A stretch of 64,000 nucleotides of DNA, taken from contig CAWBWZ010000021.1 in the NCBI GenBank assembly GCA_963792575.1, forward strand, positions 194,778-258,777, read 5' to 3'. Each line of letters starts with the position of its first letter. Positions within the stretch are counted from its first letter, which is position 1. Made by a program: the position numbers and the translations under genes. The notes beneath the pieces were generated by a model. That model was not told the DNA's origin, made no database searches, and worked only from the letters and a program-made list of their open reading frames with translations. This DNA comes from an uncultured Acidobacteriota bacterium (GTDB lineage: Bacteria > Acidobacteriota > Thermoanaerobaculia > Multivoradales > UBA5704). Positions 12,350-42,082 of this stretch are shown one piece after another.

Positions 12350-12870
12350 CGCCCCTGCCGGCCAGCGCCGCGCGCCTACGCTCTCGTGCGCTGCGCGACG
12401 CGCCCGCTCACGACCACCTGCGCCCACCAGCTCGCCGGGTCAGCGGCGACCCTGCCGGGCAGCGCCGCACGCCTGCGCTCTCGTGCACTGCACTACGCGC
12501 CCGCTCACGACTACCTGCGCCCACCAGCTCGCTGGGTCAGCGGCGACCCCTGCCGGGCAGCGCCGCGCGCCTACGCTCTCGTGCGCTGCGCGACGCGCCC
12601 GCTCACGACCACCTGCGCCCACCAGCTCGCCGGGTCAGCGGCGACCCTGCCGGGCAGCGCCGCACGCCTGCGCTCTCGTGCACTGCACTACGCGCCCGCT
12701 CACGACCACCTGCGCCCACCAACTCGCTGGGCCAGCGGCGACCCCTGCCGGGCAGCGCCGCACGCCTGCGCTCTCGTGCGCTCCACTACGCCTCGGCTCA
12801 CGACCACCAGGGCCTCCCGGCTCGTCGGGCCAGCGGCGACCCTACCGGTCAGCGCCGGCCGCCTGTGTAC
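12350..12870. repeat. 97/98-bp tandem repeat, about 5.3 copies, with alternating A/B subtypes (195-bp higher-order unit)
   Basis: CAGCGCCGC recurs at 12363, 12460, 12558, 12655, 12753 and 12850. Copies 1 and 3 look identical, and so do copies 2 and 4. Confidence 0.85.
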
Positions 12871-12924
12871 TCGGTTCCGCAAGGCTGCACCGAACTGCTG
12901 TTCACCCTCTCATTCAAGTCGGAG

Positions 12925-12982
12925 ATTTTCCACCGGCCCGCCAGGGCCGCACCAGCTAACCAAAGGGGGGTGGGGGATCGCC
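12925..12982. repeat. 58-bp perfect inverted repeat, left arm (partner 13257-13314)
   Basis: ATTTTCCACCGGCCCGCCAGGGCCGCACCAGCTAACCAAAGGGGGGTGGGGGATCGCC. Its exact reverse complement is at 13257-13314. Confidence 0.85.
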
Positions 12983-12983
12983 T

Positions 12984-13088
12984 AAGCGCCGACCCACCCA
13001 GCCCCACCCTGCCCTTGAGTAAGCAGGTGCGGCCCTACGGGCCTCGGTTGCGACAGGGCCGATTGGCAGGCTTAACTCGGTGCCCGAC
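12984..13088. repeat. 105-bp direct repeat, copy 2
   Basis: Identical by eye to 10279-10383. Confidence 0.85.
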
Positions 13089-13096
13089 GGCTGCGT

Positions 13097-13143
13097 CCGG
13101 CTCAAAGGGTGAAGCGGAGGTCCGAAGGCGACTCCGGTCCGTT
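13097..13143. repeat. 47-bp repeat, inverted copy of 9974-10020
   Basis: CCGGCTCAAAGGGTGAAGCGGAGGTCCGAAGGCGACTCCGGTCCGTT. Confidence 0.8.
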
Positions 13144-13256
13144 CCGCAAGCTGCGCCGGACTGCTGCCCACCCTCTCATGCGAGTCGAAGTGCCCCACCC
13201 GGAGAAGCTCCGGCTCAGCTCCGAAACCGGAGTCGCTCGCAGCCTCTCCTTTGAGG

Positions 13257-13540: not shown

Positions 13541-13867
13541 GTGAGCGCCGATCCCAATTTGCCACCCGCCGAACCGCCGCACCGAACGGTCATCCGTTCC
13601 TCCCGTTTCACCCCTGAGGAGTGGAAGACGGTGCAACAACGGGCAGCCACGGCCGGCCTGTCGCCCTCGCGCTTCCTTCGCTCGGTCGCTTTGGGAGCGC
13701 CTCTTGGACGGCGCGTCAACGCCGAGGCTGCGCTCGCCCTCAATCGCGTCGGCGTCAACCTCAACAATCTGATCCGGCTGGCCATCCGCACCTCTCAGCC
13801 CTTCGTCGCCGCGGACGTTAACGCCCTCCTCGATCAACTGCGCGACCGCCTGCGCGATCTGCTGTGA
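13541..13867 (+). CDS. mobC: MobC-family relaxosome accessory protein
   Basis: RFTPEEWKTVQQRAATAGLSPSRFLRSVALG matches the MobC pattern (R.T.EE...l...A...G.S.S.flR..alg). GTG start. The stop overlaps the relaxase start (GTGA). Confidence 0.75.
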   Translation: MSADPNLPPAEPPHRTVIRSSRFTPEEWKTVQQRAATAGLSPSRFLRSVALGAPLGRRVNAEAALALNRVGVNLNNLIRLAIRTSQPFVAADVNALLDQLRDRLRDLL

Positions 13868-15627
13868 TCGGTAAAACGCATAGCGGCGCCGGATTCGGCG
13901 GCTTGACCCACTATCTTTTGACAGGAAAGAAGGACGACCCCCGTCCCGATCGGGTGCTGTGGACCTCCACCCGCGAGCTGGCGCTGGAGGACCCCCGCGA
14001 GGCTGCTGTCCTGATGCGCGCCACCGCCGCCCTGGGACAAACGGACAAACCCGTCCAGCACCTCTCCATCTCACTGGCACCCGGCGAGCACCTCACCCGC
14101 GACCAGTGGGAGCAGGTTATCGATACCACCATGCGCGACCTCGGCCTCGAAGGTCATCAAGCCCTCATCGTCGCCCACCAGGACACCGCCCAAGAGCACA
14201 TCCATCTGATGGTCAACCGCGTTCACCCTGAGACCTACCGGGCGTGGGACCGATGGCAGGACAGGCCCCGCTTGATGGCATCTCTACGACCCCAGGAACT
14301 AGCGCTGGGCCTCAAGCCCACCCCGCACCTCAAAAACTCCGACCGCTTACCCGACGGAATGGTCCAGCAGTTTGAGCGCACCGGCGAGCCCCCCTTACTG
14401 GACTTCGCCCGAGCCGCAGCCCGGCCGATCTTCCTACAGGCCGACTCCTGGAGTGACCTGCACGAGCGACTGGCCGAAAACGGCTTGTATTTGGAGCGCA
14501 AAGGTCAGGGACTTGTCATTAGCGACGACCACCGCCACATCAAGGCTTCCTCCGTCGACCGCTCCGCCTCCCTACGCGCCTTGGAATCACGGCTCGGCCC
14601 CTATCAGGAGCGCGGGCCGTTGCTCCAGCAGATTGAACGCACCCTGCACGCCAACATCCGCGAGCGCGAGCTCGCCGCCGAGCTGGCCCCCCTTCGTTCC
14701 GCCTATCAAGAAAGGACCCTCGCTGTAGCCGCCCGCGACATGGCCGCCTCTCACCTGGACCATGCGGGAAAGGTGCTCCACCGCGCCGCCGAAGTTGCTT
14801 ATCGCGACCCCGCCGAAGCCTCCCGTCGCTACCTTTCCCGTCTACAGGGCGGGGGTGCTCCAGACGTCGCGCCCATTGATTTGGGACCTCTCAACGGCTC
14901 CGTCCTCCGCACGGGCCGCTTTTACCTACCGCTCGGAGCCTACGGAGAGCGGGCTTTCAAGGTTGCGGTCGAACAGATTCCAAGCCTCGGCGCCAATTAC
15001 CAGAATGCGTATGCGGGGCTTGCGCGCACCAATGACCACCTCGAAACCGTCGGCAGACGGCTGGAGCAGTTGGAGCAGAGATTTCAACCTCAGCTTGAGG
15101 AGCTTCGCCACCTCGAAGCTCGCTCCAAGCCCCTTGACCTGGCTGAGGGCGTGATGTCCTTGCGCCCCCGGGATCAGATCACCTTGGCCCGGAAACACGG
15201 CGCCGAAGTTTTAGAACGCGCCGCAAAGAACGCTCCCGCGCATTCCACCCGAACGGTCGCCGCCCGCCAGCAGTGGATGAAGAGCTTGTCCCCTTCGCTC
15301 GACCGTGCCCTGGATCGACAGCTCGCCCGGCGCGGCATTCCGGCACCGGTCCCTGGTCGGTCTGCAGCGTGGTTAGAGACTGCCCTAGACCGTGGGCTCC
15401 GGCCCGCTCACGCTCTACAAGCCTTGGCTCGGGTTGGCGTTCCACTGGCCGAAAACCTCCGCGCTACCTCGCACGCACTCGCCTTTACTCGCGGGGTGGT
15501 GAGCCACTCGGTTAAAACCGCCGCTCTGCTGACCGCCAGGGCCTTGGGTGTGCCAACCTTGCCCCTCAGACTCGCCTCCCTCTCGTGGTCCTTGGCTCGC
15601 GACTTGGTGCGTGCGCTCTCGCGATAA
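13864..15627 (+). CDS. Relaxase / mobilisation nuclease (MobA/VirD2 family)
   Basis: N-terminal relaxase domain with the histidine triad HQDTAQEHIHLMVNRV and an early YLL Tyr region. Intact 587-aa ORF coupled to mobC. Confidence 0.8.
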   Translation: MIGKTHSGAGFGGLTHYLLTGKKDDPRPDRVLWTSTRELALEDPREAAVLMRATAALGQTDKPVQHLSISLAPGEHLTRDQWEQVIDTTMRDLGLEGHQALIVAHQDTAQEHIHLMVNRVHPETYRAWDRWQDRPRLMASLRPQELALGLKPTPHLKNSDRLPDGMVQQFERTGEPPLLDFARAAARPIFLQADSWSDLHERLAENGLYLERKGQGLVISDDHRHIKASSVDRSASLRALESRLGPYQERGPLLQQIERTLHANIRERELAAELAPLRSAYQERTLAVAARDMAASHLDHAGKVLHRAAEVAYRDPAEASRRYLSRLQGGGAPDVAPIDLGPLNGSVLRTGRFYLPLGAYGERAFKVAVEQIPSLGANYQNAYAGLARTNDHLETVGRRLEQLEQRFQPQLEELRHLEARSKPLDLAEGVMSLRPRDQITLARKHGAEVLERAAKNAPAHSTRTVAARQQWMKSLSPSLDRALDRQLARRGIPAPVPGRSAAWLETALDRGLRPAHALQALARVGVPLAENLRATSHALAFTRGVVSHSVKTAALLTARALGVPTLPLRLASLSWSLARDLVRALSR

Positions 15628-15659
15628 CTGTCAGCTAGAGCTGTGAAAGACTACGAACG

Positions 15660-15986
15660 ATGACAAGCCAACGTCCAAAACCGTGGCGTCAACTCCTGGA
15701 ATCTGGTTTCGAAACTCGGCTCTACGCCATTGAAGATTTACCGACAGGGAAGCGACGAGTCCTCCTCGAGAACTCCGCGTGGCATCCTAACCAATGGGCG
15801 GTTGTTTGGTTCTTGCGAGACCTGGACTCGGAGCAGCTCTACCGAATTACGATCTTTAAGAACCGTCAGACCGGAGGCTATGGTCCTGTGAGCGATCTCG
15901 CTGATGTAGCCCCAGGAACGAGCTTGACCATCGAGATTCATCAAAACCGAACGGGGACCTTCCGAATCCAGAACACACAGCTTTAG
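15660..15986 (+). CDS. Hypothetical protein (108 aa)
   Basis: Intact ORF directly after the relaxase. No recognisable domain. Confidence 0.45.
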   Translation: MTSQRPKPWRQLLESGFETRLYAIEDLPTGKRRVLLENSAWHPNQWAVVWFLRDLDSEQLYRITIFKNRQTGGYGPVSDLADVAPGTSLTIEIHQNRTGTFRIQNTQL

Positions 15987-15993
15987 CTGGGAA

Positions 15994-16590
15994 TCAGGAT
16001 GGGCTACTGCGCTGCCCGGCGCTCATTCTGTGTTCTTGGGCGGGGTTTGCGACTTGGGCCAAATACGTTTCACGGTCGAGTCCATAACACAGCATCTCCC
16101 GACCGAGAAGGCTGCTGCGGCTTAACAGTCTTTCGCCAATCCTTTCAGCCACGCGGATCGAGGCCCGATTCTCCGGATCAATCATGCTGATGACGCGGTC
16201 CCTCTTTAAGTCATTGAAGGCATAGGCCAGAGCCTCCCTTGCGCCCTCCGTGGCGTAGCCATGACCCCACCAGCGCCGCGCCAGAGTCCAGGCCAGCTCG
16301 AAGCCGGGCCAACCCTCAGGCGCCCCAAAACCGACGATCCCGAGAAATGAGCCTGTCTCTTTGTGCTCGATCGCCCACATCCCGGCTCCCACGAGTTGCC
16401 AATGGCCCAGAAGGAAGGCCAGATGACGCCAAGATCGCCCACGGTCCCACGGTATTCCTCCGCTTCCCACCAGATAGCGCAACACTTCAGGGTCCGCCTT
16501 CATCGCGGCATAGTCCTCATAGTCGCTCTGCCGAAGACTCCGCAGCCGAAGGCGTTCCGTCTCTCGGGAAGGAACTTCTAATACGCCCAT
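15994..16590 (-). CDS. GNAT N-acetyltransferase (RimJ/RimL-like, Acetyltransf_3 type)
   Basis: ERLRLRSLRQSDYEDY..FLGIVGF..ELAWTLARRWWGHGYATEGAREAL..IDPENRASIRVAERIG. The start is at internal Met 16590, with RBS GAGGAA. Confidence 0.75.
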   Translation of the reverse strand: MGVLEVPSRETERLRLRSLRQSDYEDYAAMKADPEVLRYLVGSGGIPWDRGRSWRHLAFLLGHWQLVGAGMWAIEHKETGSFLGIVGFGAPEGWPGFELAWTLARRWWGHGYATEGAREALAYAFNDLKRDRVISMIDPENRASIRVAERIGERLLSRSSLLGREMLCYGLDRETYLAQVANPAQEHRMSAGQRSSPS

Positions 16591-16716
16591 TGTTTCCTCT
16601 TTTGGCCGTGAGAAAAAGGGCGCGGGGGACCCGTTGCCAGCAGCCCCCCGCGAGGATAAGAGGTAGTCCACGCGCCTTGAGCCTTTACTTTCACTCCTGG
16701 ATGATTCCGCGCCTTC

Positions 16717-17346
16717 TCATTTCTTCTTTCTCGGCACGGCGTCATGAATTCGCCTCCTAATCAGGGTTGCAAGGAGAGCGAATTGCGCCTCGTCTTCTCT
16801 CTCGGATGGGCTCTGATCTTCCATCCGGACAAAAGTCCGAATAATTACCTCCCTCAAATTAATGACCGCTTCTTTTGCGTTCCCTCCCTCTGCCGAGAGA
16901 CCGGAATCATCGAGAGAAGCCCGAAGCGGCCTATTTGAGGGATCCACCAGAACCGCAATAGGCCGAAGCAAATCGAAATCGGGCCCCGGAAGACCATTAA
17001 TATAGAACGTCCGCAAAGGGGGATTACGCCTTAGCTCCTTTTGCATCCGCTTTAGCTTAGCCCCCGCCTTTGCGAGTTCTTCGCCCGCGCTTTCTAATTC
17101 TTCCATCAATGCACTGAACCACTCGTTAGCTGGCTCTCGCACCTCTTCAATGCTGGAGTGGTATTCGCGCCACGCCCGCTTAAGCTCTTTGATAGACTCC
17201 GGAGGAAACCTGCGGCGCTCCCCATCCATCAGAGTAGGGATTCTGTCGCCGTAGTGCTCTAACAAAATGGCTAACTCCTTCTGCGGGATTCCCGTCTCCC
17301 GGACGATTTCGGCTCCTGAATGAATTTTGCGCTGCGCTACGCTCAT
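16717..17346 (-). CDS. Hypothetical protein: MerR-like HTH N-terminus, coiled coil, HicB-like C-terminal segment (tentative)
   Basis: ETGIPQKELAILLEHYGDRIPTLMDGERRRFPPESIKELKRAW resembles a MerR-type HTH. It is the last gene of a four-gene overlapping operon. Confidence 0.5.
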   Translation of the reverse strand: MSVAQRKIHSGAEIVRETGIPQKELAILLEHYGDRIPTLMDGERRRFPPESIKELKRAWREYHSSIEEVREPANEWFSALMEELESAGEELAKAGAKLKRMQKELRRNPPLRTFYINGLPGPDFDLLRPIAVLVDPSNRPLRASLDDSGLSAEGGNAKEAVINLREVIIRTFVRMEDQSPSEREDEAQFALLATLIRRRIHDAVPRKKK

Positions 17347-17708
17347 TCGTTTCCCTCGCGGCTTATTAGCCGATTTCCCTCAGCCCAAAACGCCACGAGT
17401 GCATTGTCCGGCTCAGGCCGATCGTGCAGCGGCCGATAATCCCCGCAGAAATAGCCCCCTCCTACAATGAAGGCGTGTTCTTTCTCCCTAACCTGTCCCT
17501 GGAATCGCCTCACTAAGCTCATGCCTTTCCTTTCGGGTCGTATTGCGAATTTTAAGCAAATCCCTTCTGATTCGTCTGCATGGGTTGGCGAGTAATGACC
17601 ACAGTTCATACACAGCCGCCCATAGGCTTTCAGCAAATCTACTTTCCCCGATTCCATTTCTTGGGCGGGGTCTCTGCACTCGGGACATCGACATGCGCGC
17701 TCACTCAT
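17343..17708 (-). CDS. Cys-rich zinc-ribbon-like protein
   Basis: CRCPEC...CMNCGH four-Cys pattern. ATGA overlaps with both neighbouring genes. Confidence 0.5.
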   Translation of the reverse strand: MSERACRCPECRDPAQEMESGKVDLLKAYGRLCMNCGHYSPTHADESEGICLKFAIRPERKGMSLVRRFQGQVREKEHAFIVGGGYFCGDYRPLHDRPEPDNALVAFWAEGNRLISREGNE

Positions 17709-18148
17709 GACTGTGAATCCTCATTCGGCGCTGAGAGGGTTGTAGCAACTTGCCTCCAACTCGTTTTGTTTATCTGGAGAGCGCTCCGCATACGTGTTTC
17801 CAACTGAGCCCCAAAGAGACCCATCACCTCCATAATGATTTTGGCAAAGGCTTCCTGCTCTCCTTTGCCGATCAGCGCTCCGGACTCTGCCGTTAACAGC
17901 ACCCGCTCCAGAATGTGATCCTCTGTCCCTATATGATCTAGAAAGTCTGTCAGATAGAAGAGCACCATAGGACGAACGTTCAAGGCTTCCAGAAGCTTTT
18001 CCAACGAATCCAGCTTAGGAAGCTCTCTCCCGTTTTCGTATTTTGAGAGCTGACTCTTCCCGATCTTTGCCTTCTGTGCCAAGACCGCTTGGCTGGTCCC
18101 GCTGAGTTCCCGGAGCACCCTAAGCGCTATGCCGACTCGGCCGAACAT
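17705..18148 (-). CDS. XRE-family HTH transcriptional regulator
   Basis: LRVLRELSGTSQAVLAQKAKIGKSQLSKYENGRELPKLDSLEKLLEAL is a canonical Cro/C1-type HTH. Confidence 0.8.
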   Translation of the reverse strand: MFGRVGIALRVLRELSGTSQAVLAQKAKIGKSQLSKYENGRELPKLDSLEKLLEALNVRPMVLFYLTDFLDHIGTEDHILERVLLTAESGALIGKGEQEAFAKIIMEVMGLFGAQLETRMRSALQINKTSWRQVATTLSAPNEDSQS

Positions 18149-18633
18149 GAGTCTTCTTGCTCGCTTTCCGATTCGGCGAGCGCCTTTCGTAGGTCAAGCA
18201 GTGCCGGGCCAATGTAGTCCTTCAGGAGACAGCCGATCACTGCCCGCAGTTCCATTGCCACGTCCATCCCTTCGACGTCCATAAGTCGAACGGGCTCAGC
18301 AGCAGGCTCCGGGAGAATGCCCTGGATTCCAAGCATTGTTAGCTGAAGGGTCTCCAAGCCGTCTTCGACCTTATGAAGTTGCCTTTGAGCGGTGGTCAAC
18401 GGTGTCACGCTCCCGCATGACAGGTCGGGGCTCTCACTGGCGAAGCTCCAGAGCCTTCGAGTCTCCCGGCTACAGACCGGACAGCCCCTGAGCAGGTGGC
18501 GGACCACGGCCCGCGTCTCCGATGGGGGAAGTCTGCATGCCACGAAGCTCCCAAGGTCCTCCTTAGTCGGATGGGTGCCCACTTCACCGGCCTGCGGTTC
18601 GCCCTCCCCGTTTTCCTCCTCCCCAGATTTCAT
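18127..18633 (-). CDS. Putative zf-HC2 (anti-sigma-like) zinc-finger protein
   Basis: EDLGSFVACRLPPSETRAVVRHLLRGCPVCSRE matches the H-x3-C-x2-C anti-sigma zinc-finger pattern. The start is at Met 18633, with RBS GGGAGGG. It overlaps the XRE gene by 22 nt. Confidence 0.5.
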   Translation of the reverse strand: MKSGEEENGEGEPQAGEVGTHPTKEDLGSFVACRLPPSETRAVVRHLLRGCPVCSRETRRLWSFASESPDLSCGSVTPLTTAQRQLHKVEDGLETLQLTMLGIQGILPEPAAEPVRLMDVEGMDVAMELRAVIGCLLKDYIGPALLDLRKALAESESEQEDSCSAESA

Positions 18634-18915: not shown

Positions 18916-20385
18916 ATGGCCCATAAACCTACTTTGCGGCAGTTAATGGTGTCGTTCCTAGCTCTACGGAGGGACCTCAGCCATAAAGAAATCGGCGCTG
19001 CCGCTGGTATCCCTCAGAAGCGGGTGTCCCTTTACCTCCGTCGTGGAGAGATCCCGGATGAAGCCCTGGAGAAGATGATGGCCGCTCTGGAGTGTTCCCC
19101 GGCAGCCGTGCTCACCGTGACGGCTTGCCTGGAATCTCTGGAGGCTCTGGAGAGCGAGCCAGACCTAACTGAGGAAGAGAAGGCGGAAATCGCTGACGCG
19201 CTGCTCCGAGTTGGCCGCCAGGTCCGCGAGGGGCTCATCGAGGCCGCTCGGCATTCCCGGACCGTCCGCTCCTCCTCCGAAGAGAAACCCGACCTCCAAG
19301 CCCTTGCTTACGATCGGCAGCGAGCGGCCGAGTTGTTCCGGCGGCTGGACGGTCTTCCTGAAGGGCTCCGTTTGGCGGTGGTCGAGGTGGCCGAGGAGTG
19401 CCAGAGTTGGGCCTTGTGCGAGCGGGTCTGCGAGGCGTCGGTCCGCGAAGCTTCCCGAGACGTTGAGCAGGCGGCGGCGTGGGCTCATCTGGCTCAGCAG
19501 ATCGCTGAGCGGGTCCCAGGCTTCGGGGAGTGGCGAAATTGCCTCCGGGGCTATGCGGCGGCCCATGTTGCCAACGTTCTGAGGATCTCCGGTGACTTAA
19601 GATCCGCCGAGACCGCCTTTGAAGGGGCTAAGCGCCTGTGGCAGGCGGGCTCCGATCCTGCAAATTTGCTCGATCCAGGGCGGCTACTGCACCTGGAAGG
19701 TGCGTTGAGGAGGGATCAGCGCCGCCTCCCTGAAGCCGTGGCCCTCCTCGACGAGGCCGCCGCCGTAGGGCGCACCCCTGAGCGAGCCTTGCTCCAAAAA
19801 GGCTACACCCTCGAAGTCATGGGAGAGTACGAGAGAGCCGTTGAGACGCTTCTTCGCGCCGCTCCCCTGGTAATTCAGCAAGGCGATTCGCGGCTTGAGA
19901 GCATTCTCTCCGGCAACCTCGCGCTGAACTACTGTCATCTGGGCCGTTTTGAGGAAGCGGCACTGCTGGCGAACCGGGTACGCGCTGCCGCTCTAGAATC
20001 CGGCGACGAGATCGAAGCCCTGCGCATGACCTGGGTACAAGGTCGCATCGCAGCAGGACTCGCAAGGAACGAGGAGGCGCGGAGCCTGCTGGCCCAGGCC
20101 CGGCGAGGGTTCGCCGCCCGCCGGATGGAGTACGACGTGGCGTTGGCCCTGCTGGAAGAGTCCGCCCTGCTCCTCGACGAGGGAAGGGCGGCCGAGGTCA
20201 AGCTCCTGGCCCGCGAACTGGCCGTCCTGTTCGAGGGCAAAGGGGTACATCGGGAGGCCCTGGCCGCTCTAAGGCTCTTCCAAGAGGCCGCCGAGCAGGA
20301 GCAAGCAACGGCCGAGCTGGCCCGCCGGGTGCTCGGGTATCTCTTCCGCGCCCGTCACGACTCGGACCTCCGGTTCGTGTCATGA
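18916..20385 (+). CDS. HTH-TPR protein, paralog 1
   Basis: N-terminal HTH-like segment (SHKEIGAAAGIPQKRVSLYLRRGEIPDEALEKMMAAL). The C-terminal ~360 aa are TPR-like helical repeats, about 90% or more identical to 20722..22149. Confidence 0.7.
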   Translation: MAHKPTLRQLMVSFLALRRDLSHKEIGAAAGIPQKRVSLYLRRGEIPDEALEKMMAALECSPAAVLTVTACLESLEALESEPDLTEEEKAEIADALLRVGRQVREGLIEAARHSRTVRSSSEEKPDLQALAYDRQRAAELFRRLDGLPEGLRLAVVEVAEECQSWALCERVCEASVREASRDVEQAAAWAHLAQQIAERVPGFGEWRNCLRGYAAAHVANVLRISGDLRSAETAFEGAKRLWQAGSDPANLLDPGRLLHLEGALRRDQRRLPEAVALLDEAAAVGRTPERALLQKGYTLEVMGEYERAVETLLRAAPLVIQQGDSRLESILSGNLALNYCHLGRFEEAALLANRVRAAALESGDEIEALRMTWVQGRIAAGLARNEEARSLLAQARRGFAARRMEYDVALALLEESALLLDEGRAAEVKLLARELAVLFEGKGVHREALAALRLFQEAAEQEQATAELARRVLGYLFRARHDSDLRFVS

Positions 20386-20721: not shown

Positions 20722-22149
20722 ATGAGCCGAGAGCACATCATGGCGCGACTGCTTCGCGCACTGTCCGGTAAGACTCAACGGCAGTTCGGGAAGGAGGTCG
20801 GAATCGATCCCTCTCTGGTAGCGGATTTTGAGCTCGGCACAGGGGTCCCCAGCCGGGAGTATCTCGAGCGCATGGCGGCAGCCGTGGGGCTCACCGTTTC
20901 ATCTACGGAAGACGCGTTGCGCTTTCTGGATTCGCTCCGCAGACCCCGCCAGAGGAGGGGTGCGGGCGTGGAGCCCCTCCTGGAGGGAATCGCGCGAGGA
21001 GTCCGCTCCGAAGTAGAAGACGCCTACCGGCGGCTGCTTACTCTCCGCTTGCCGGACGCGCTCCCCCGAGGTGAAGACCGACAGCGGGCGGGCGAGTTGT
21101 TCCGGCGATTAGAGGGTCTTTCTCAAGTGGCCCGTTTGGCGGTGGTCGAGGTGGCCGAGGACTGCCAGGTTTGGGCCTTATGCGAGCGGGTCTGCGAGGC
21201 GTCAGTCCGCGAAGCTTCCCGCAACGTGGAGCAGGCGGCGGCGTGGGCTCATCTCGCGCAGCAGATCGCGGAGCGGGTCCCAGGCCCCGAGGCTTGGCGC
21301 AATCGCCTTCGGGGCTATGCGGCGGCCCATTTAGCCAACGCCTTAAGGGTTTCCGGGGATCTGGGCTTCAGTGAAATCACCCTGGAAAAAGCCAAGTGCT
21401 TATGGCAGGCGGGCTCCGATCCTGCAAATTTGCTCGATCCAGGGCGGCTACTGCACCTGGAAGGTGCATTGAGGAGGGATCAGCGCCGCCTCTCTGAAGC
21501 CGTGGCCCTCCTCGACGAGGCCGCCGCCGTAGGGCGCACCCCTGAGCGAGCCTTGCTCCAAAAAGGCTACACCCTCGAAGTCATGGGAGAGTACGAGAGA
21601 GCCGTTGAGACGCTTCTTCGCGCCGCTCCCCTGGTAATTCAGCAAGGCGATTCGCGGCTTGAGAGCATTCTCTCCGGCAACCTCGCGCTGAACTACTGTC
21701 ATCTGGGCCGTTTTGAGGAAGCGGCGCTGCTGGCGAACCGGGTATGCGCTACCGCTCTAGAGACGGGAGACGAGATTGAAGCCCTGCGCATGACCTGGGT
21801 TCAGGGTCGCATCGCGGCGGGACTCGGAAGGAACGAGGAGGCGCGGAGCCTGCTGGCCCAGGCGCGGCGAGGGTTTGCCGCCCGCCAGATGGAGTACGAC
21901 GTGGCGTTGGCCCTGTTGGAAGAGTCCGCCCTTCTCCTCGGCGAGGGACGGGCGGCCGAGGTTAAGCTCCTGGCCCGCGAGCTGGCCGCCCTGTTCGACG
22001 GTAAAGGGGTGCATCGGGAGGCCCTGGCCGCTCTGCGGCTCTTCCAAGAGGCCGCTGAGCAGGAGTATGCGACGGCCGAGCTGGCCCGTAGGGTGCTCGG
22101 GTATCTCTTCCGCGCCCGCCACGACCCGGACCTCCGGTTTCCGTCATGA
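20722..22149 (+). CDS. HTH-TPR protein, paralog 2
   Basis: XRE-like HTH (LLRALSGKTQRQFGKEVGIDPSLVADFELGTGVPSREYLERMAAAVGL) plus a TPR region near-identical to paralog 1. Nucleotides 21420-21715 look identical to 19660-19950. Confidence 0.7.
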   Translation: MSREHIMARLLRALSGKTQRQFGKEVGIDPSLVADFELGTGVPSREYLERMAAAVGLTVSSTEDALRFLDSLRRPRQRRGAGVEPLLEGIARGVRSEVEDAYRRLLTLRLPDALPRGEDRQRAGELFRRLEGLSQVARLAVVEVAEDCQVWALCERVCEASVREASRNVEQAAAWAHLAQQIAERVPGPEAWRNRLRGYAAAHLANALRVSGDLGFSEITLEKAKCLWQAGSDPANLLDPGRLLHLEGALRRDQRRLSEAVALLDEAAAVGRTPERALLQKGYTLEVMGEYERAVETLLRAAPLVIQQGDSRLESILSGNLALNYCHLGRFEEAALLANRVCATALETGDEIEALRMTWVQGRIAAGLGRNEEARSLLAQARRGFAARQMEYDVALALLEESALLLGEGRAAEVKLLARELAALFDGKGVHREALAALRLFQEAAEQEYATAELARRVLGYLFRARHDPDLRFPS

Positions 22150-22310: not shown

Positions 22311-25300
22311 TCAGCGGTCCAGACGCCGCAGTTCCTCGGAAAGACCTAGAAAATGGTGTCGTTCCATCTCGTCAATGAGATCGAGACACCTGGACTGAAT
22401 CGTACGATCCTCAGTCTGAGCATAGAGACGTACCACTATTTTCGAGAGCTCCATGGCAACCGCGGCGCCTGCGCTGGATATATCTCCTGCCACATCGCGG
22501 TTAGCATCAATACACCTTTCGACACATGAGCAAACTAGATCAGGAAGCTGGACCGATGAGCTTTCAAGTGCCCGAACCACCGGCTCCAGAGCAGTTCGTC
22601 CTGGAGAGGTACCTAAAAATGCTGAGAGTAGTTCGGCTTGATCTCTTGACGAGAGGCCTGCTAGGTGTTCAAAGGCGGAAGCCGCCTTCGCACGAACCGA
22701 GTCATCCGGGTCGGCGAAGAAGGGTTTAAGTAGTTGAAGGCACGTAGGGCCGACAATGTCGTGCGCTATGTTGGACGAATAGACCTCTGCGGCAGCAGCC
22801 CGCATTATCGGATTGCCGTTTCGAACTCGTTCCGCATCCGGTTTCGCAGACTCGACATCCAAAGCAAGAAGCGTGACCTGTCGTGCGGCCGCTGCCATGA
22901 CTTCGGGTGAGGGTGATTTCAACATTGCCTCAATGACCGGATAAACTGCGACAAAATCTCTATAACCAGCGTAATGGATAAAGCTCTCTACGTATGGAGT
23001 CTCTAGCATCACCGAATCGACCGACACACACTCGCAGAACCAGCAGATTGCTCTTGCAGCGTCTAGATCCAACATGGCGAGCAGTGTCTCGACCGCACAG
23101 GAGCGAACAGCGATCGAGCTATCAATAGATAGGCTACGCACAGCCTCCAGCAATCGCTCAAGCTTCTCGGGCTGCTTTGATAATAGAAGCGCGATCGAAT
23201 CAGCAACAGTACCACGTATAGAGTTGATACCTGCACTGTGAGGACATCCACCATGGTAAGGTTGTCCATTCGGAGCAAGTGTTCTCCAAGTCTCCGTGTC
23301 CGGATCTGGATCATTAAGCGCATACCAAGCAAGGACGTCGATAACTTCCTCGGGCCAGAGGTAATCATTCCACTTTTTGATCAGCCACGCAATCTCATTT
23401 CCGCAAGGCCTTCCGGGAAGCCCATGAACCCGCCGAACAAGGGAGACAATTCTGGCCTGCGAGACCGGCGCTGCCGAGGAACGATTATCACAGGCAACGC
23501 TTTCTGCAACCCCCCTCAAAATGGCCGAGAAGTAGCTGGCCGGAAAGTCGTTGGGTATCTGTTCAGCGAGTTTTAAAAATCTTTCTGGATCGAGTTTCGT
23601 TTGAGCCGTCAATAATTGGGCGAGCTGTGGCTCCCCTCCGGATCGGAAATACTCTGGAGTGAGTCTATTTCGTCGCGCGTACTTATTCATGGCCCGAACC
23701 CAGTGGGCATCTAACATCTTACTCGCGCCGTCAGCAGAAATAGGAGATGGAATTCCAATAGATACACGTGGTGAAGTAGGAGGATCGTGCCGCTCCAAGG
23801 GAAACTTTCTCTGAAGCTCCGCGAGTCTCGCCTTTCTCACAGAGCCAAGTCGGGAGAAGTCGAGGGACCGTAGCAACTCTAACTGCATCAGGCCGCGCAT
23901 CTTTGGATACTTGGCTTCAAACTTATCCTGTAATGAGATGATCGCGTGCTCGAGTGCCTCGAATTGTGCTGTCGTGCACGTCGCTGAAGCCGCACGTACG
24001 GCCGAGGCTGAAGTATGGATGGCTGGCGACCCGCCGCTGCCGCTCCATGAGCTATACCCTATCTTTAGCCGACGAGGGTCCGCAGCCAGAAATTCGGCCA
24101 AGCGGTCTGCGTAAGACTCTGGCGCAGCGGTCCATGCGCGTAGCACAAGATACGTAATTGTATTATGCCCCCTATTTAGGTATGGCGCGAGCAGCCGATC
24201 AAGGTCAGCCGGAGCAGCCTTCGCCAGTGTCGCTAAAGCCCGGGCCAGGCATGAAAGGAGTGCTGCGGAGTTTTGAATAACAGAGCCACCAAAATGGCGG
24301 CGGGACCAGAGGGGATCGAAATCAAGGCCATCATCAACCGCAATGGCGGTTTCCTCAATGAAGCTTGCGACGCGAGGAAGAACCTGCTCTACATAGCTAA
24401 GCGTTGATTGGGCAGCGCTTTGAATAATAATGCCCCCGCTTCCAGTGTTGAGCCTTCGTGAAAGCTGATCGATGCTGGGCCGAGCGCCTCCTAGCCCGTC
24501 CTCACTTTTCCATCTGATAATTGTACGATCAAACCAATGGCCGATCACTTGGCAAGCTAATTCCGGCTGCTCATGAGCAACCGAGTAGAGCACAGACCAC
24601 CAATCGTCATTCACTGCGAACCCAGGGCGCAAATCATCGAGTGTGCCGTCATTGATCAAAGCCAGGAAAAATTCAAACATCTCTCGGCTATAGAACACTT
24701 GGCCATTGCGGCAAACAAATCGCAAATATTGATTCCACGGATCTCCTGGTTTGCGGTACAGCCGCAAGAGAGCGGCGATGCGGCCCGACCGCTCTTTCAA
24801 AAGTTCGGAGGAGCTTAGCATCCACACTACCTCCTCTTGCCGTTGCGCGCTCTCAACCGACAAAGCAGTGTCAAAGAATTCCTCAGAATCAAGGACATCA
24901 AACCAACTCGGACGTCCAGCTGTGATGCCACGAATATGTGGACTAAGCTCCCCATTTGACCGGAGCACCTTTTTGAGCACTAGCCATTCTTCCTGTCTTG
25001 GATCTACCAGCGATGATAACCAATCGAACACCAGTCGCTTGATATGGAAGCGCACCCCCGAGTGCGCTATGACTCTCTCAAGCTCGTCGAGATACCGACG
25101 CCATTCGTGAGCCCGCAGATAAGAGAGCACTTGGCGCACCTGACCGCGACGAAATAAATGCTGCTCGGCACCGAAGAGAAGGCACAGAAGGTCATCGCCT
25201 CTAGCCACCCACCTTCGAGCGAAAGCGTAATCAAAGAATGATTCATGAAAGAACTGATATTTATGGTCGGTTAAGTTCAGAATATGCTCCGAGAGCATTG

Positions 25301-26936
25301 CTCGCGCATCAGAAGATAAGTCGTCGAGAATATATTCTGGAGCAGATAATTGCTGGTTCTCGCTGAGCCAGGTCGCGATTTTGTCGATCACCTGAGTCCA
25401 CGCTGCCTTGCGCCCAAGCCTTTGGTCAACGCGACGTTCGCTCTCAACCCAAAATTTGTCGAACAGACCGTCCTTGCTCAGAATACACTCTCGGTCGCTC
25501 GGAGCCAAGTCAAGGAACATAGATAGGTGGAGAGGATTCGTGAGGATGGTCTTGAGCGAAGGATCTACGGAGCTAGGTTTCATGCTTGCACCGAGTAAAG
25601 CGCCGTCAACTTGCTCTATAGTGAGAGGCTTGACGGTTACGACTGCGAAACCAGACTGATCTGCTTTCATCGTGCGTATCCGGTGATCATGCTCTAGATC
25701 GAATTCGCGGCAGCCCACTATCAAGGACATTCGAGGAGATCGATCTATCTCGCGCCAAAGGTCGTCAAAAAGGGACCAAAGGTCCGCTCGCCTGCCAGAG
25801 GCAATGCTAATGGCATCAAGCTGGTCAATGACTAGAACGGAAGGAGCGCCGGAAGCGACGCCCGCAAGGGTAAGTACCGGCGATTCAGGGAGAAGTAGCT
25901 TCCGGCCCAGTTCCGTTGTAGTGAGAATCCCTTCAGGTAGTTGGTCGAACCGAATCGGTATCACAGGCACATGGAGGGCCCGCAGGTGCTCGACTACGGC
26001 TGCTAGGGTTGTGCTTTTGCCAGCACCTGCTCCGCCGACCACAAGCGACTTTGCGTTTGATAGGTGGCCATCGAAACTCAGCAGAGACTCTGCCCCGGGT
26101 AATGGCAGTAAAGACCCATTAATGAGGCGAGAGCGCTGCGACAGCGTGTATGACTCACACATATCTTCTATTCGATCCAACACTGACTTGTCCGCCGACC
26201 ACTCGCGCAGCCGAATTCCGTGATTGGCTAATTTCCCAAGAATCGTGACTTTGTCGAGTGGCTTGTGGATATTGTCGAGGAGCAATTCAGATAGATGTCC
26301 TCGTATCTCAGCTACATTCAGCGAGCCATCCACTGAATAGAAGAGCTTTCGGGTCGCAAAGTCGACACGTCCACGAAGCTGAACCTCATTGGATACAGAT
26401 ATCCGAGTCCGCCTGAGGAAGGTTAGCGCACGTTCGAGATCATTGCTGCAGAGTGGTAGAATGTATTTTCTGAACGCAGCATTCAGCTTTGCAGAGCGAC
26501 TAAGTCGAGCGTCTAGATCTGCTTTGTCGATGGAAAAGGTCCGAAGTTCCTCGAGGTCGCGAGCGCCCTGAGCTGAAGCGAAGACAGCGTAAGAACTGGG
26601 CTCCATCTCAACGTGGCGTAGAAGGTCGCCCAAGATCGTTCTGCCCCTCTTGTCTTGGCTGGTTAGGATGCTTAGGGTCCACCCCTCTGCTTTCGTCGTT
26701 TGGCTCTTGACTGACCAGTATTCTTTTGTATTGCCGTCGGTGTAAACGACAAACTCAACTCCTCGCGCCTCATCTTGGTCGAGAGGTTCTAAGATTAAAT
26801 GGTGTGCGGAGCCATCGACGATCCGCAGGAGCTGATCGATCGCCCATGAAGTTTCATAACGATTGCCGAGCTTGTCGGCGGCACCACCGCTAACCGGCAT
26901 GACAGGTGTGCTCGCAGCGGCCGAAGGTGCGCTCAA
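22311..26936 (-). CDS. STAND NTPase (NACHT-like): N-terminal Cap4/DUF4297-like PD-(D/E)xK nuclease domain, C-terminal HEAT/ARM repeats
   Basis: Intact 1541-aa ORF with G+C about 50%. The N-terminus GGAADKLGNRYETSWAIDQLL..LEPLDQDE..VEFVV..WSVKSQ resembles DUF4297/Cap4 nuclease. Walker A is LVVGGAGAGKST, Walker B is VLVIDQLDAIS, and SLIVGCREFD sits at the NACHT hhhTSR position. C-terminal HEAT-like repeats include IAVRSCAVETLLAMLD, PEVMAAAARQVTLLALD and DDSVRAKAASAFEHLA. Confidence 0.75.
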   Translation of the reverse strand: MSAPSAAASTPVMPVSGGAADKLGNRYETSWAIDQLLRIVDGSAHHLILEPLDQDEARGVEFVVYTDGNTKEYWSVKSQTTKAEGWTLSILTSQDKRGRTILGDLLRHVEMEPSSYAVFASAQGARDLEELRTFSIDKADLDARLSRSAKLNAAFRKYILPLCSNDLERALTFLRRTRISVSNEVQLRGRVDFATRKLFYSVDGSLNVAEIRGHLSELLLDNIHKPLDKVTILGKLANHGIRLREWSADKSVLDRIEDMCESYTLSQRSRLINGSLLPLPGAESLLSFDGHLSNAKSLVVGGAGAGKSTTLAAVVEHLRALHVPVIPIRFDQLPEGILTTTELGRKLLLPESPVLTLAGVASGAPSVLVIDQLDAISIASGRRADLWSLFDDLWREIDRSPRMSLIVGCREFDLEHDHRIRTMKADQSGFAVVTVKPLTIEQVDGALLGASMKPSSVDPSLKTILTNPLHLSMFLDLAPSDRECILSKDGLFDKFWVESERRVDQRLGRKAAWTQVIDKIATWLSENQQLSAPEYILDDLSSDARAMLSEHILNLTDHKYQFFHESFFDYAFARRWVARGDDLLCLLFGAEQHLFRRGQVRQVLSYLRAHEWRRYLDELERVIAHSGVRFHIKRLVFDWLSSLVDPRQEEWLVLKKVLRSNGELSPHIRGITAGRPSWFDVLDSEEFFDTALSVESAQRQEEVVWMLSSSELLKERSGRIAALLRLYRKPGDPWNQYLRFVCRNGQVFYSREMFEFFLALINDGTLDDLRPGFAVNDDWWSVLYSVAHEQPELACQVIGHWFDRTIIRWKSEDGLGGARPSIDQLSRRLNTGSGGIIIQSAAQSTLSYVEQVLPRVASFIEETAIAVDDGLDFDPLWSRRHFGGSVIQNSAALLSCLARALATLAKAAPADLDRLLAPYLNRGHNTITYLVLRAWTAAPESYADRLAEFLAADPRRLKIGYSSWSGSGGSPAIHTSASAVRAASATCTTAQFEALEHAIISLQDKFEAKYPKMRGLMQLELLRSLDFSRLGSVRKARLAELQRKFPLERHDPPTSPRVSIGIPSPISADGASKMLDAHWVRAMNKYARRNRLTPEYFRSGGEPQLAQLLTAQTKLDPERFLKLAEQIPNDFPASYFSAILRGVAESVACDNRSSAAPVSQARIVSLVRRVHGLPGRPCGNEIAWLIKKWNDYLWPEEVIDVLAWYALNDPDPDTETWRTLAPNGQPYHGGCPHSAGINSIRGTVADSIALLLSKQPEKLERLLEAVRSLSIDSSIAVRSCAVETLLAMLDLDAARAICWFCECVSVDSVMLETPYVESFIHYAGYRDFVAVYPVIEAMLKSPSPEVMAAAARQVTLLALDVESAKPDAERVRNGNPIMRAAAAEVYSSNIAHDIVGPTCLQLLKPFFADPDDSVRAKAASAFEHLAGLSSRDQAELLSAFLGTSPGRTALEPVVRALESSSVQLPDLVCSCVERCIDANRDVAGDISSAGAAVAMELSKIVVRLYAQTEDRTIQSRCLDLIDEMERHHFLGLSEELRRLDR

Positions 26937-27707
26937 TTATCGAAGAATTTTGGCTCACCGTGACCCCTTCGAGAGTCAATTCCAATTACCATGATAGCCG
27001 TAAACAAGGCGTGAGGCAAGGGCGAGACTCGAAATCGGCCAGTCCCGTCCAAGCGGCTGAGCAGCGCTGCCCCGCACGCGAGCGTCTAGGAACGCACGCC
27101 GTGTCGCTCGGTTCCGCGCTGACCAGCAGCGCCGGCGCGCCGTGCGGGAAACACTCGGACAGACTAACTTTTGCGAGCGGGTATTGGGCCTGGGCAAGGA
27201 AGCGTAGCGAACCGATGGCGCGGGCGGTCTACCCCTGGCTGCTCAGGGAGGCGGCCCTCCCCCCGTCCGTCTCCGCTAGGCCGTGCCGCCCCCTCCGAGC
27301 GAGGCGCGGAAGGGGCCCCTCTGCGGGTCAGCGCTGCCGTCGGCGCCCGCGTGCGCCGCACGATGCGCGCACGCCTCAACGCCGCCGCAATGCTGACGTC
27401 CGGTGTCTCCGCAAGCCCCGCGAAGCCTTGTCCGGAGGCGCGTCCATAATCTCAGGGCTCCGCCGATCGGGCCTCCCCGCAATACCACGCTCTGGATAGC
27501 GCTGGCGAGTCTCCCGGTTCCAACGGCCCGGCGAGCCGCTCTGAGCGTCGCCGCTGGTCCTCCCACGTTCGGGGCGGGCGTCTTGGAGTGATCGCCTGTC
27601 CGTTCGGCAGTCTCACTGGCGCCGCCCGCTGATCGGCCGCCGCGAACGACTCAGCCACTTTCCAGGTGAGAGAGGAGGGGAGCGAAGGTGTAGCGCGCCG
27701 CTACCTC

Positions 27708-28115: not shown

Positions 28116-29744
28116 CTACGCCTTAACCCGGCTCGGCCCCGCCGCCTTCACCGCCTCGTCGACTCCACTCTCATACTTCTTGAAATTGTCGGCGAACATG
28201 TCGGCGAGACTGGGTGGCCTGGGCGTCGTAGTCGGCTGGAGCTCTGCCAGGTCTCGCGCGGGTGGAGGAGCTTGTCCGGCACCCCCTCGATGCGGGTCGG
28301 CACGTCGAGGCCGAAGATCGGATCGGTCCAGGTCTCGACGCCGTCGAGCTCGCCGGTCAGCGCGGCGGTCACCATGCGGCGGGTGTAGGCGAGCTTGATC
28401 CGCTGGCCGACGCCGTACGGGCCGCCCGTCCAGCCGGTGTTGAGCAGCCAGACCCGGACGCCGTGCTCGGCGAGCTTCTCGCCCAGCATCTTGGCGTAGA
28501 CGCCGGGATGGAGCGGCAGGAAGGGGGCGCCGAAGCAGGTGCTGAAGGTCACCTTGGGCTCGGTGACCCCGCGCTCGGTGCCCGCCACCTTCGCCGTGTA
28601 GCCGGAGAGGAAGTGGTACATCGCCTGCTCCGGGGTCAGCCGGCTGATCGGCGGCAGCACGCCGAAGGCGTCGCAGGTGAGGAAGACCACGTTGCTGCGG
28701 GTGCCCGGCCTGGCCGCCGAGGTCGACGTTGTGGAGCTGGGTCAGCGGATAGCTCGACCGGGTGTTCTCGGTCAGGCGGTCGCTGTCGAGATCGAGGCTT
28801 GCGGGTCTCCGGGTCGAAGACCACGTTCTCGAGCACGGTGCCGAACGTGCGGGTGGTGGCGTAGATCTCCGGCTCGCCCTTCGCGGCGAGAGGCGGATCA
28901 CCTTGGCGTAGCAGCCGCCCTCGACGTTGAAGACGCCGTCGTCGCTCCAGCCGTGCTCGTCGTCGCCGATCAGCGTGCGCATCGGGGTCGGCCGAGAGGG
29001 TCGTCTTGCCGGTGCCGGAGAGGCCGAAGAAGAGCGCCACGTCGTCCTCGTGCGTCGGCGCCGTAGTTGGCGCTGCAGTGCATCGACAGCACGCCCTGCT
29101 TGGGCAGGTAGTAGTTCATCACGCTGAAGATGCTCTTCTTGATCTCGCCGGCGTAGCGGGTGCCGCCGATCAGCACGATCCGCTGCGCCAGGTTGAGCAG
29201 GATGAACGTCGGGGTGCGGGTGCCGTCGCGCTGCCGGGTCGGCCTGGAAGTTGGCGACGTTGATCACCGTGAAGTTGGGCTCGAAGCTCGCGAGAGCGGC
29301 GGGGTCCTCCTCGCGGATGAACATGTTGCGGGCGAAGAGGTTGTGCCAGGCGTATCGGTGATCACCCGGACGTTGATGCGGTAGCGCGGATCGGCGCCGG
29401 CATAGCCGTCGAAGACGAAGAGGTCCTTGCCCTGGAGATACTCCTGGGCGCGGGCGAGCAGCGCCGTCGAACTTCTCCGTCTCGAACGGCCGGTTGACCT
29501 CGCCCCACCAGATATCGCCGTCGGTCGCCGGGTCCTTGACCACGAACTTGTCGTTCGGCGACCGGCCGGTGTGCTGCCCGGTCTCGCAGACCAGCGGCCC
29601 CCTCGGCGGCAGGGCCGCCTCGCCGCGCTGGACGGCCAGCTCGACCAGGCGCGCCGGCGGCAGGTTCCAGTACACCGTGCCCGCGCCGGTGATCCCTTGC
29701 TTGTCCACCCCAAAGCTGCTCACTGCCGGCCCTTCATTTTTCAT
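28116..29744 (-). CDS. pckA: Phosphoenolpyruvate carboxykinase (ATP) (heavily frameshifted as assembled)
   Basis: Motif trail across three frames: [67 protein letters not shown] (kinase-1a), [73 protein letters not shown]. At least 9 frame switches. Confidence 0.85.
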
Positions 29745-29764: not shown

Positions 29765-31095
29765 TCAGTGTGATCTCTGCGAAACCAGATAGTCGACGAG
29801 GAGCCGCGACATCGTGCGGATGCCCACCGGCACCGCGCCGTCGTCCCCCCGGAAGTTGGGCGTGTGCAGACCGCCCGAGGTCGTGCCCGGCTTGAGAGTG
29901 CCGAGCCGGTAGTAGAACCCGGGGACCTCCTCGGCGAAGTAGGCGAAATCCTCGCCGGCCATGGCGGGCTCCACCGATCTTGACGTTGCCGGCGCCCGGC
30001 GATGCGCTCGAGCAGAGGCTTGACCTGCTGGGTGAGCGCCGGGTCGTTGACCGTCGCGGGCGCGTTCTTCTGGTACTCCAGCTCGAACGAGGCCCCGTTG
30101 GCGCGGGTGACGCCGTCCAGGATCTCGCGCATGCGGCGCTCGACCGTCGGCGCGCACCTCCGCGTTGTAGGTGCGCACCGTGCCCTCGAGCATCACCTCG
30201 CCGGGGATGATGTTGAAGCGCTCGCCGCCGCGGAAGATGCCGACCGTGATGACGCTCGGCTCGAGCGGCGACAGGTTGCGCGAGCGGATCGTCTGCAGCG
30301 CCATCACCACCTCCGCCCCGATCGACGATCGGATCGATCGCCAGGTTGGGGGTAGGCGCCGTGCGCCTGCTTGCCCTTGATCTTGATCCGGAACTGGTCG
30401 ACCGCGGCCATCGTCGGCCCCGAGTTGAAGCCGATCTGGCCGACCGTCAGCTCCGGGAAGGAGTGCAGGGCGAAGACCGCCGTGGGCTTGTACTGCCGGA
30501 AGAGGCCCTCCTCCAGCATCAGGGGGGCGCCCGCCTTCTCCCCCGGCGGCGGCCCCTCCTCGGCGGGCTGGAAGATGAAGAGGATGCTGCCGGGGATGTC
30601 CGCCTTCACCGCCGAGAGGACCGAGGCGACGCCGAGCAGCGACGTGGTGTGGATGTCATGGCCGCAGGCATGGGCGACGCCGACCTCCTGGCCCAGGAAG
30701 GTGTCCCGCTTGGTCGACTTGAACGGCAGGTCGGTCTCCTCGGTCACCGGCAGGGCGTCCATGTCGGCGCGGACGGCGATCAGCGGCCCGGGCTTCCCCC
30801 CCTTGAGCAGGGCGACGACACCCGTCTTGGCGATGCCCGTGCGGGCCTCGAGCCCGAGGGAACGGAGGTGGGCCGCCACCAGCTCGGCCGTCTGGGTCTC
30901 GCGGTTCGAGAGCTCCGGGTTCTGGTGGACGCGGTGGCGCAGCTCGATGAGCTGCGGCGCCACCCGCTCCGCTTCACGGTCGATGCGGGCGTCGAGATCG
31001 CTGCCGGCGGGGGTCGCCGCCGGCGCGGGGAGCGCCGTCAGGGCGAGGCCAAGCGCGAGCGGCGCGAAGCGGACCGTACTCCAGCGGGGCATCAT
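29765..31095 (-). CDS. M20D-family amidohydrolase (N-acyl-amino-acid / hippurate hydrolase type), secreted; frameshifted as assembled
   Basis: Signal peptide MMPRWSTVRFAPLALGLALTALPAPA. Motifs LRHRVHQNPELS, IAVRADMDALP, AHACGHDIHT and LFIFQPAEEG. About 3 frame switches near 30340, 30150 and 29980. Confidence 0.75.
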
Positions 31096-31233
31096 CGTCC
31101 TCCAGATCAAAAAAAGCAGCCGCTCGCCCACGACGCGCGGCGCGCCAGAAAAACCGAACGAGTTTAACCCGATAAGGCGGCATTCTCACCCCGGAGTGAC
31201 GAACGCGTGCCAGAGCGCCGTCACCGCGCCCGC

Positions 31234-41987: not shown

Positions 41988-42082
41988 CACATTAAGACAT
42001 CGATAGAAAGCATATGCGGTTAGAAGTAGGCTTGCCAGAGCTCACGGCGTAAGCCAGAGGGCAACCTGACCGGGAGGAGGTG

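Follow-up and report, generated by a model that had tools for sequence, protein, structure and literature searches.

A predicted, divergent Avs7-type antiviral receptor gene at the end of a mobilisable island in an uncultured Acidobacteriota bacterium

We analysed a stretch of 64,000 nucleotides (nt; hereafter the window) from an uncultured Acidobacteriota bacterium (assembly GCA_963792575.1, contig CAWBWZ010000021.1, positions 194,778 to 258,777 of the forward strand), whose longest open reading frame (ORF) is predicted to encode a member of the Avs7 family of antiviral STAND (short for signal transduction ATPases having numerous domains) proteins (Table 1). The open frame covers positions 22311..26936 of the minus strand and counts 1541 codons from a TTG at 26936, in agreement with an earlier account made from the letters alone (the sequence-only reading), which had singled it out as the largest of the window. 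An ATG at 26900 lies 12 codons downstream of the TTG and is followed by MPVSGGAADKLGNRYE. This ATG is almost certainly the true start, giving a product of 1529 amino acids (aa), because full-length homologues of 1500-1550 aa begin at an equivalent Met-Pro, with the N-terminus 'MPxxGGxADKLGNRYE'. The G+C content of the ORF is 0.530 (0.528 at third codon positions), compared to 0.68 in both flanks of the island in which it lies, a composition strongly atypical for the host. The sequence-only reading had put this value at about 50% and called it the lowest in the window; the measured figure is higher, and the segment at 39.9-44.5 kb is lower still, at 0.517. Upstream of the gene, there are five sigma-70-like sites of the quality of the promoter candidate in Table 1, against 2.2 expected.

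The window protein was aligned with 54 full-length homologues (29-61% identity) using MAFFT, and this alignment of 55 sequences is the source of the family profile and of the conserved positions given below. In the N-terminal domain, G6, K10, E16, E38, E49, F50, K65 and W74 are invariant. An AlphaFold2 model of residues 1-700 (mean predicted local distance difference test score, pLDDT, 90.1) has helices at 7-29 and 89-99 and strands at 32-37, 50-54, 58-64 and 103-109, with E38 at the end of the first strand, E49 at the start of the second and S63-V-K65 at the end of the third. The predicted alpha-beta-beta-beta-alpha-beta core has the layout of a PD-(D/E)xK nuclease. Cap4_nuclease (PF14130) was the sole Pfam family to recur for this domain, in 7 of the 24 relatives and with E = 1.1e-5 at best. 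When the profile of the N-terminal domain was used in a word-indexed search, all matches were fragments of this protein family, and no independent link to the Cap4 of CBASS (cyclic oligonucleotide-based antiphage signalling systems) emerged.

The central part of the protein has the hallmarks of a STAND NTPase. Residues G292, G294 and K295 of Walker A, D359, Q360 and D362 of Walker B, R398 of sensor-1 and H552 of the winged helix are invariant throughout the alignment. In a Foldseek search with the model of the N-terminal 700 residues, against a structure library without SeAvs7 (see below), Avs4 (8DGF) and Avs3 (8DGC) came out on top, followed by the NACHT domains of NLRP3, NOD2 and NLRC4. A Pfam scan of the window protein gave no match to NACHT (PF05729) and only AAA_16 at 4e-4; some homologues carry precomputed Pfam matches to NACHT, nSTAND1 or nSTAND5.

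The C-terminal part was modelled as an all-helical solenoid (pLDDT 90.7, predicted template modelling score 0.67), for which the nearest solved folds in Foldseek were BRAT1, karyopherins, CAND1 and the PP2A A subunit, all HEAT/ARM solenoids; Pfam recognised HEAT_2 and HEAT below threshold only. The model finishes in a helix at 1520-1528, and L1506, D1510 and R1529 are conserved. The sequence-only reading had proposed a PD-(D/E)xK nuclease at the N-terminus, a NACHT-like NTPase with the motifs GGAGAGKST, VLVIDQLDA and IVGCREFD, and a HEAT/ARM-like helical-repeat sensor, and had suggested structure prediction as a check. Both half-models, at pLDDT ~90, are in line with this domain order. The nuclease is further borne out by the invariant E16, E38, E49 and K65 and by the Cap4_nuclease matches of the relatives, the three motifs are present and conserved as Walker A, Walker B and sensor-1, the NACHT-like character of the NTPase is echoed in the Foldseek ranking of the NLR (nucleotide-binding, leucine-rich repeat) proteins directly after Avs4 and Avs3, and the nature of the sensor is supported by its helical model and solenoid matches.

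Searches against all sequences in the PDB gave the protein a closer identity. With the single sequence, phmmer found one significant relative, 9N00_A, a 1523-aa 'AAA family ATPase' (E = 3e-21), with query residues 282-654 aligned to residues 278-645. With the family profile, the match improved to E = 6.3e-68 and resolved into two collinear stretches. The matched protein is Salmonella enterica Avs7 (SeAvs7), whose apo, monomeric and tetrameric structures are deposited as 9N00, 9N01 and 9YIX; it is composed of a Cap4 nuclease, a STAND NTPase and a bilobed, sharply bent helical sensor (Lee et al., bioRxiv 10.64898/2026.01.04.697583). The first stretch joins profile positions 12-669 to SeAvs7 11-657 and thus covers nuclease and NTPase together, with the nuclease domain aligned to the SeAvs7 Cap4 motifs 'GxxYQ ... 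D ... DD ... QCK'; a profile of the N-terminal domain alone also matched SeAvs7 53-188 (E = 3e-4). The second stretch joins 964-1519 to SeAvs7 944-1521 (81.9 bits, i-Evalue 1.9e-22) and reaches residue 1521 of 1523. The conserved C-terminal helix of Avs7, which has a fixed length and clashes with the nucleotide-binding domain upon activation, is therefore present, alignment and model both extending to the end of the protein. No further solved STAND protein was matched by the family profile among all PDB sequences, the Avs3 and Avs4 chains being absent at E <= 1.

These alignments show that nuclease, NTPase and sensor are all three collinear and homologous with Salmonella Avs7, and that the nucleotide-binding residues are intact (see the SeAvs7 counterparts in Table 1). 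The two proteins have the same three-part order and nearly the same length, both are encoded by single genes and horizontally transferred, and they share equivalent Walker A and B residues, the counterparts of SeAvs7 R395 and H545, and a helical sensor that runs through the C-terminal helix. Membership of the window protein in the Avs7 superfamily is very likely, and by its sequence the gene is classed as a divergent, intact new member of the known Avs7 family. The sensor, judged by its alignment, is homologous to that of Avs7 and forms no new sensor class. The sequence-only reading had placed it outside the described Avs types, with perhaps another trigger, and this finds no support, the SeAvs7 profile match running to the C-terminus. 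Its broader proposal of an Avs- or bNACHT-like antiviral protein holds, by homology to SeAvs7, for the single-gene Cap4-STAND-solenoid architecture and for the role in defence; it does not hold for the novelty of the sensor. The data as a whole are best explained, with a probability that we put at roughly 0.75, by a gene product that is a stand-alone STAND receptor of the Avs7 family with an antiviral role.

Several observations weigh against this explanation. The resemblance to SeAvs7 is remote; the sensor region as a single sequence scored -1.2 bits against SeAvs7, its similarity being at the profile level only, and the N-lobe of the sensor (residues ~670-963) was not aligned to SeAvs7 even by the family profile. 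It should be noted that the two N-lobe segments left unaligned have almost the same size, with 294 residues in the window protein and 286 in SeAvs7. The window protein scored 14.9 bits against PF14130 (E = 0.032), short of the gathering cut-off of 26.2, and its AAA_16 and HEAT scores were likewise under the Pfam gathering thresholds. The window clade carries SxK where Cap4 and SeAvs7 carry QxK. Opposite the SeAvs7 residues Q999 and D1003, which contact EF-Tu, the window protein has K and A, and the family consensus reads r and e. Lastly, two of six inspected contexts were without defence genes.

The divergence of the sensor raises the question of what it recognises. SeAvs7 binds the HK97-fold major capsid protein of the phage with the assistance of EF-Tu, a step limited to one clade of 192 homologues (Lee et al., whose curated list counts 3,272 Avs7 homologues). 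The EF-Tu-assisted step probably does not apply to the window protein, given the K and A at the counterparts of Q999 and D1003. One alternative is that the same Cap4-STAND-solenoid chassis would still abort infection by degrading DNA, but that this clade senses another phage protein or a perturbation of the host. The very low sensor identity to SeAvs7, the unalignable N-lobe and the non-conserved EF-Tu interface residues are in line with such a change, as is the fact that other solenoid-sensor Avs families each sense a different phage protein (Lee et al.). Yet SeAvs7 and the far more distant Dsr1 sensor both answer to the capsid protein, recognition follows overall shape rather than specific contacts (Lee et al.), and the C-lobe and terminal helix of the window protein are collinear with those of SeAvs7. 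We consider this alternative unlikely. It is also conceivable, with similarly low probability, that the clade is a deep sister lineage of Avs7, and its unalignable N-lobe and non-conserved EF-Tu surface could mean that it recognises another phage or archaeal-virus protein or recruits another host cofactor. The hosts differ as well, the window clade occurring in environmental phyla and SeAvs7 in Enterobacteria.

The final nuclease motif calls for a separate explanation. It reads SxK in the subclade of the window protein, QxK in distant family members and 'QCK' in SeAvs7, and the gene could in principle be a decaying or inactive copy whose nuclease was disabled by the Q-to-S change, since the window protein and the relatives nearest to it have S63. 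However, SxK is kept across a whole subclade of full-length proteins with 45-61% identity, the remaining invariant residues are all present, there are no frameshifts or truncations, and such conservation speaks for purifying selection. Among PD-(D/E)xK nucleases, the residue that opens the (D/E/Q/S)xK motif also varies. An inactive copy is the least probable of the explanations that we considered.

Other known systems share parts of this architecture. Avs3 and Avs4 (PDB 8DGC and 8DGF; Gao et al. 2022), the best Foldseek matches to the N-terminal 700 residues, follow a logic in which sensing of a phage protein leads to a tetrameric nuclease, and Avs3 likewise carries a Cap4 nuclease; they differ in having no match to the family profile, sensors for terminase or portal and an NTPase of another clade. 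The eukaryotic NLRs NLRP3, NOD2 and NLRC4, together with bNACHT proteins, have the closest NTPase fold among non-Avs structures, but the effectors and sensors of the NLRs are unrelated to those of the window protein, which has no Pfam NACHT match. Single-sequence scans of the window protein with Pfam, NCBIfam and PADLOC gave only sub-threshold or NTPase-core matches. Of the PADLOC models, the candidate PDC-M54A, which matches the NTPase region, fitted the window protein best, as it did five relatives; it has ~1620-1660 positions with a similarly placed NTPase, but only ~290 of 1620 positions align, all in the NTPase core (profile positions ~310-640 of 1621-1657), and PDC-M54 is a multi-gene candidate, whereas the window gene has no conserved partner. 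The marginal PADLOC match to the NTPase of Avs2 was confined to two relatives. The PADLOC scan that the sequence-only reading had recommended recovers the NTPase core and offers no full-length model in PADLOC-DB v2.

Dsr1, a SIR2 protein with an Avs7-like sensor, shares its sensor with Avs7 (Lee et al.) and differs from the window protein in its SIR2 domain, which the latter lacks. Sensor-bearing proteins of ~1150 aa were considered as possible Dsr1-like relatives and rejected, since no SIR2 domain was found in them; they are probably truncated gene calls. On one metagenomic contig (locus L083), an Avs7-like homologue lies directly upstream of a 1185-aa, Dsr-like SIR2_2/DUF4020 protein (14786-18343, plus strand), in an integrase-flanked island with HNH genes. 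This neighbour and the Avs7-like sensor show weak collinear similarity near 'RKFP...SPIP', which is not significant (hhalign E = 0.025, probability 2%), so that the sensor sharing described for Dsr1 was not reproduced by this comparison.

The family is large and patchily distributed over phyla. A word-indexed search returned 213 relatives, nearly all of 1500-1550 aa. The sensor by itself, searched exhaustively with phmmer, matched 1,908 clusters at 50% identity, 697 of them at E <= 1e-30, and in most of these the sensor is placed at about residue 690 of ~1500. The window protein has one relative that is 98% identical. Among 185,579 species-representative genomes, relatives occur in at least 486, which include members of the Planctomycetota, Chloroflexota, Cyanobacteria, Acidobacteriota, Verrucomicrobiota, Gemmatimonadota and Myxococcota and one Methanothrix metagenome-assembled genome (MAG). 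On the contig of this Methanothrix sp. MAG (locus L026, 10001-14461), the relative is full-length, with 33% identity, and has a G+C of 0.43 between flanks of 0.57, which suggests inter-domain transfer or a binning artefact. One sensor relative of 1782 aa has a DUF4062 effector and an nSTAND5 NTPase in place of Cap4, a parallel to the effector shuffling described for Avs7, whose sensor pairs with at least 20 effectors and spreads by horizontal transfer (Lee et al.).

Among 85 homologue loci, there was no conserved neighbour, no gene family being common to more than five of them, which indicates that the gene works alone. The homologous gene is AT-richer than its flanks at 61 of 67 loci, by 4.6 points on average. 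One homologue neighbourhood contains SIR2_2/DUF4020, HNH and integrase genes, another AAA_15/AAA_21, DUF1156, SNF2 and toxin-antitoxin genes, and that of a Sorangium homologue an IS66 element and a serine recombinase. These neighbourhoods bear on the idea that the protein is a non-defence STAND, a signalling or regulatory NTPase on a HEAT-repeat scaffold carried by chance on a mobile island. Defence and non-defence clades are intermixed among STAND proteins (Lee et al.), and the two homologue contexts without defence neighbours would fit this idea. Against it stand the defence or mobile neighbours at four of six loci, the patchy distribution and low-G+C signature, the invariant nuclease active site fused N-terminally and the whole-length homology to an experimentally validated defence protein, and we judge it very improbable.

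If the gene encodes an Avs7-type receptor, its mode of action can be sketched by analogy; the steps are those of SeAvs7, in which ADP-to-ATP exchange and assembly of an asymmetric tetramer through the NTPase and Cap4 domains lead to degradation of double-stranded DNA (Lee et al.), carried over to a protein and clade known here from sequence and models. In the uninfected cell, the protein would be an ADP-bound, autoinhibited monomer, with the C-lobe and terminal helix of the sensor packed on the NTPase and the nuclease sequestered. Upon infection, both lobes of the sensor would clamp a freshly synthesised structural protein of the phage, most likely an HK97-fold major capsid protein; as the trigger of this particular protein, we favour the capsid protein by a little over even odds, from the likeness to SeAvs7. 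ADP would then be exchanged for ATP, a tetramer would form via contacts of the NTPase and of Cap4, and the nuclease so assembled would cut up double-stranded DNA, aborting the infection. The gene itself entered this high-G+C genome horizontally, as cargo of an island with an integrase and a relaxase.

The gene is the terminal cargo of this mobilisable island of ~21 kb. The sequence-only reading had placed it at the distal end of a mobile island, convergent with the second of two helix-turn-helix-tetratricopeptide repeat (HTH-TPR) paralogues, and both points proved correct: it is the last island gene before the phosphoenolpyruvate carboxykinase (PEPCK) gene, and its convergent neighbour is the paralogue 2 of Table 1. 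The gap of 1.2 kb between the gene and PEPCK holds no credible ORF. No clear att repeats bound the island: the search for direct repeats of this type turned up just one weak pair, 29 nt long and 72% identical, at 5564 and 27551, and there is no tRNA. The HTH-TPR neighbours were rejected as functional partners, not being conserved beside the homologues at the 85 loci, and are probably island regulators; the two TPR paralogues share 300 nt at 83% identity. The TIR-TM-like gene may be a second defence gene of the island.

The island also contains repeats. A perfect 105-nt direct repeat, at 10279-10383 and 12984-13088, has its copies 2.7 kb apart, and they might flank an insertion or duplication within the island. 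Tandem 195-nt repeats at 12255-12936, two copies 98% identical with two diverged copies flanking them, fall inside an ORF (12316-13254) that has no Pfam match. Just downstream of the integrase gene, at 7225-7680, there are four copies of a ~48-nt motif (..CCTTGCCAAGCCCTGAGCCCG), which could serve as sites for recombination or of the arm type, or else belong to a dispersed repeat.

Beyond the island, the PEPCK ORF has its best named relatives in Thermoanaerobaculia. It aligns to canonical PEPCKs of 538-542 aa over only ~65% of its length, and its best match is a 642-aa protein that also bears a Peptidase_M20 domain; the adjacent M20 ORFs (29765-30310 and 30304-31131) look split, and frameshifts or assembly errors are possible there. 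A second low-G+C tract, at 39500-44500, lies beside an IS66 transposase gene (37043-38605, minus strand) and is possibly a further islet, acquired or for defence. Its genes are one for a DUF4365 protein (43463-43963, minus strand) and three ORFs without a Pfam match (40058-40852, 41079-41987 and 42366-43625). The Acido-Lenti-1 RNA (Rfam RF01687; 51-56 bits) occurs twice at the edge of this tract, in inverted orientation, at 39682-39727 (minus strand) and 39831-39876 (plus strand); these RNAs and the PEPCK relatives together point to an Acidobacteriota host.

Table 1. Features of the Avs7-like gene and its surroundings in window coordinates, with the equivalent residues of SeAvs7. CDS, coding sequence; NBD, nucleotide-binding domain; HD1, helical domain 1; WHD, winged-helix domain.
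Feature	Coordinates	Strand	Residues	Basis or remark	SeAvs7 counterpart
Avs7-like CDS	22311..26900	-	1529 aa + stop	ORF list and translation; homologue starts	
Sigma-70-like promoter candidate	26991..27019	-		TTGCCT-17-TATCAT; 9/12 consensus matches, ~90 nt upstream of ATG; weak match	
Cap4/DUF4297-type PD-(D/E)xK nuclease, predicted effector	26091..26900	-	1 to ~270		
Nuclease core motifs	26706..26789	-	E38, E49-F50, S63-V-K65	Conservation and AlphaFold2 strand positions	
STAND NTPase module NBD-HD1-WHD	24921..26078	-	~275-660		
Walker A GGAGAGKST	26010..26036	-	G289-T297, with K295	Invariant residues; aligns to SeAvs7 P-loop GSGKT	K291/T292 (our own count on the chain) for K295/S296; P-loop
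Walker B VLVIDQLDA	25812..25838	-	V355-A363, with D359 and D362	Invariant residues	D358 for D359; ATP/Mg ligand in SeAvs7
Sensor-1 IVGCREFD	25698..25721	-	I394-D401, with R398	R398 invariant	R395 for R398; ATP gamma-phosphate contact in SeAvs7
Winged-helix histidine in FFHESFFDY	25245..25247	-	H552	H552 invariant	H545 for H552; ADP beta-phosphate contact in SeAvs7, resting state
NTPase to C-lobe interface residue			R370		R367 for R370; NTPase to C-lobe interface in SeAvs7
Alpha-solenoid sensor, HEAT/ARM-like	22314..24893	-	~670-1529	~860 residues	
Tyrosine integrase	5886-7166	+			
DUF5677 protein	8077-8856	+		Directly upstream of TIR gene	
TIR-TM-like protein	8942-9802	+	286 aa	PADLOC TIR-TM 2.2e-63	
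MobA/VirD2 relaxase	13864-15627	+			
GNAT acetyltransferase	15994-16671	-			
TPR protein, paralogue 1	18916-20385	+		No HTH match	
HTH-TPR paralogue 2	20722-22149	+		Convergent with Avs7-like gene	
PEPCK	28116..29744	-		Far side of island; G+C back to 0.69	

Globally, the gene marks a small island of defence and mobility, with a TIR-TM-like and an Avs7-like gene. A defence-finder database of the 2023 era would overlook the Avs7-like gene, and PADLOC-DB v2 sees its NTPase core only. It reveals no new mechanism and no new class of sensor. It does extend the Avs7 family, a capsid-sensing receptor with a Cap4 effector that has been experimentally characterised only in Salmonella, to environmental phyla that have received little study and, it appears, to an archaeon. 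What novelty there is lies in a possible drift of this large environmental clade towards a different trigger or cofactor.

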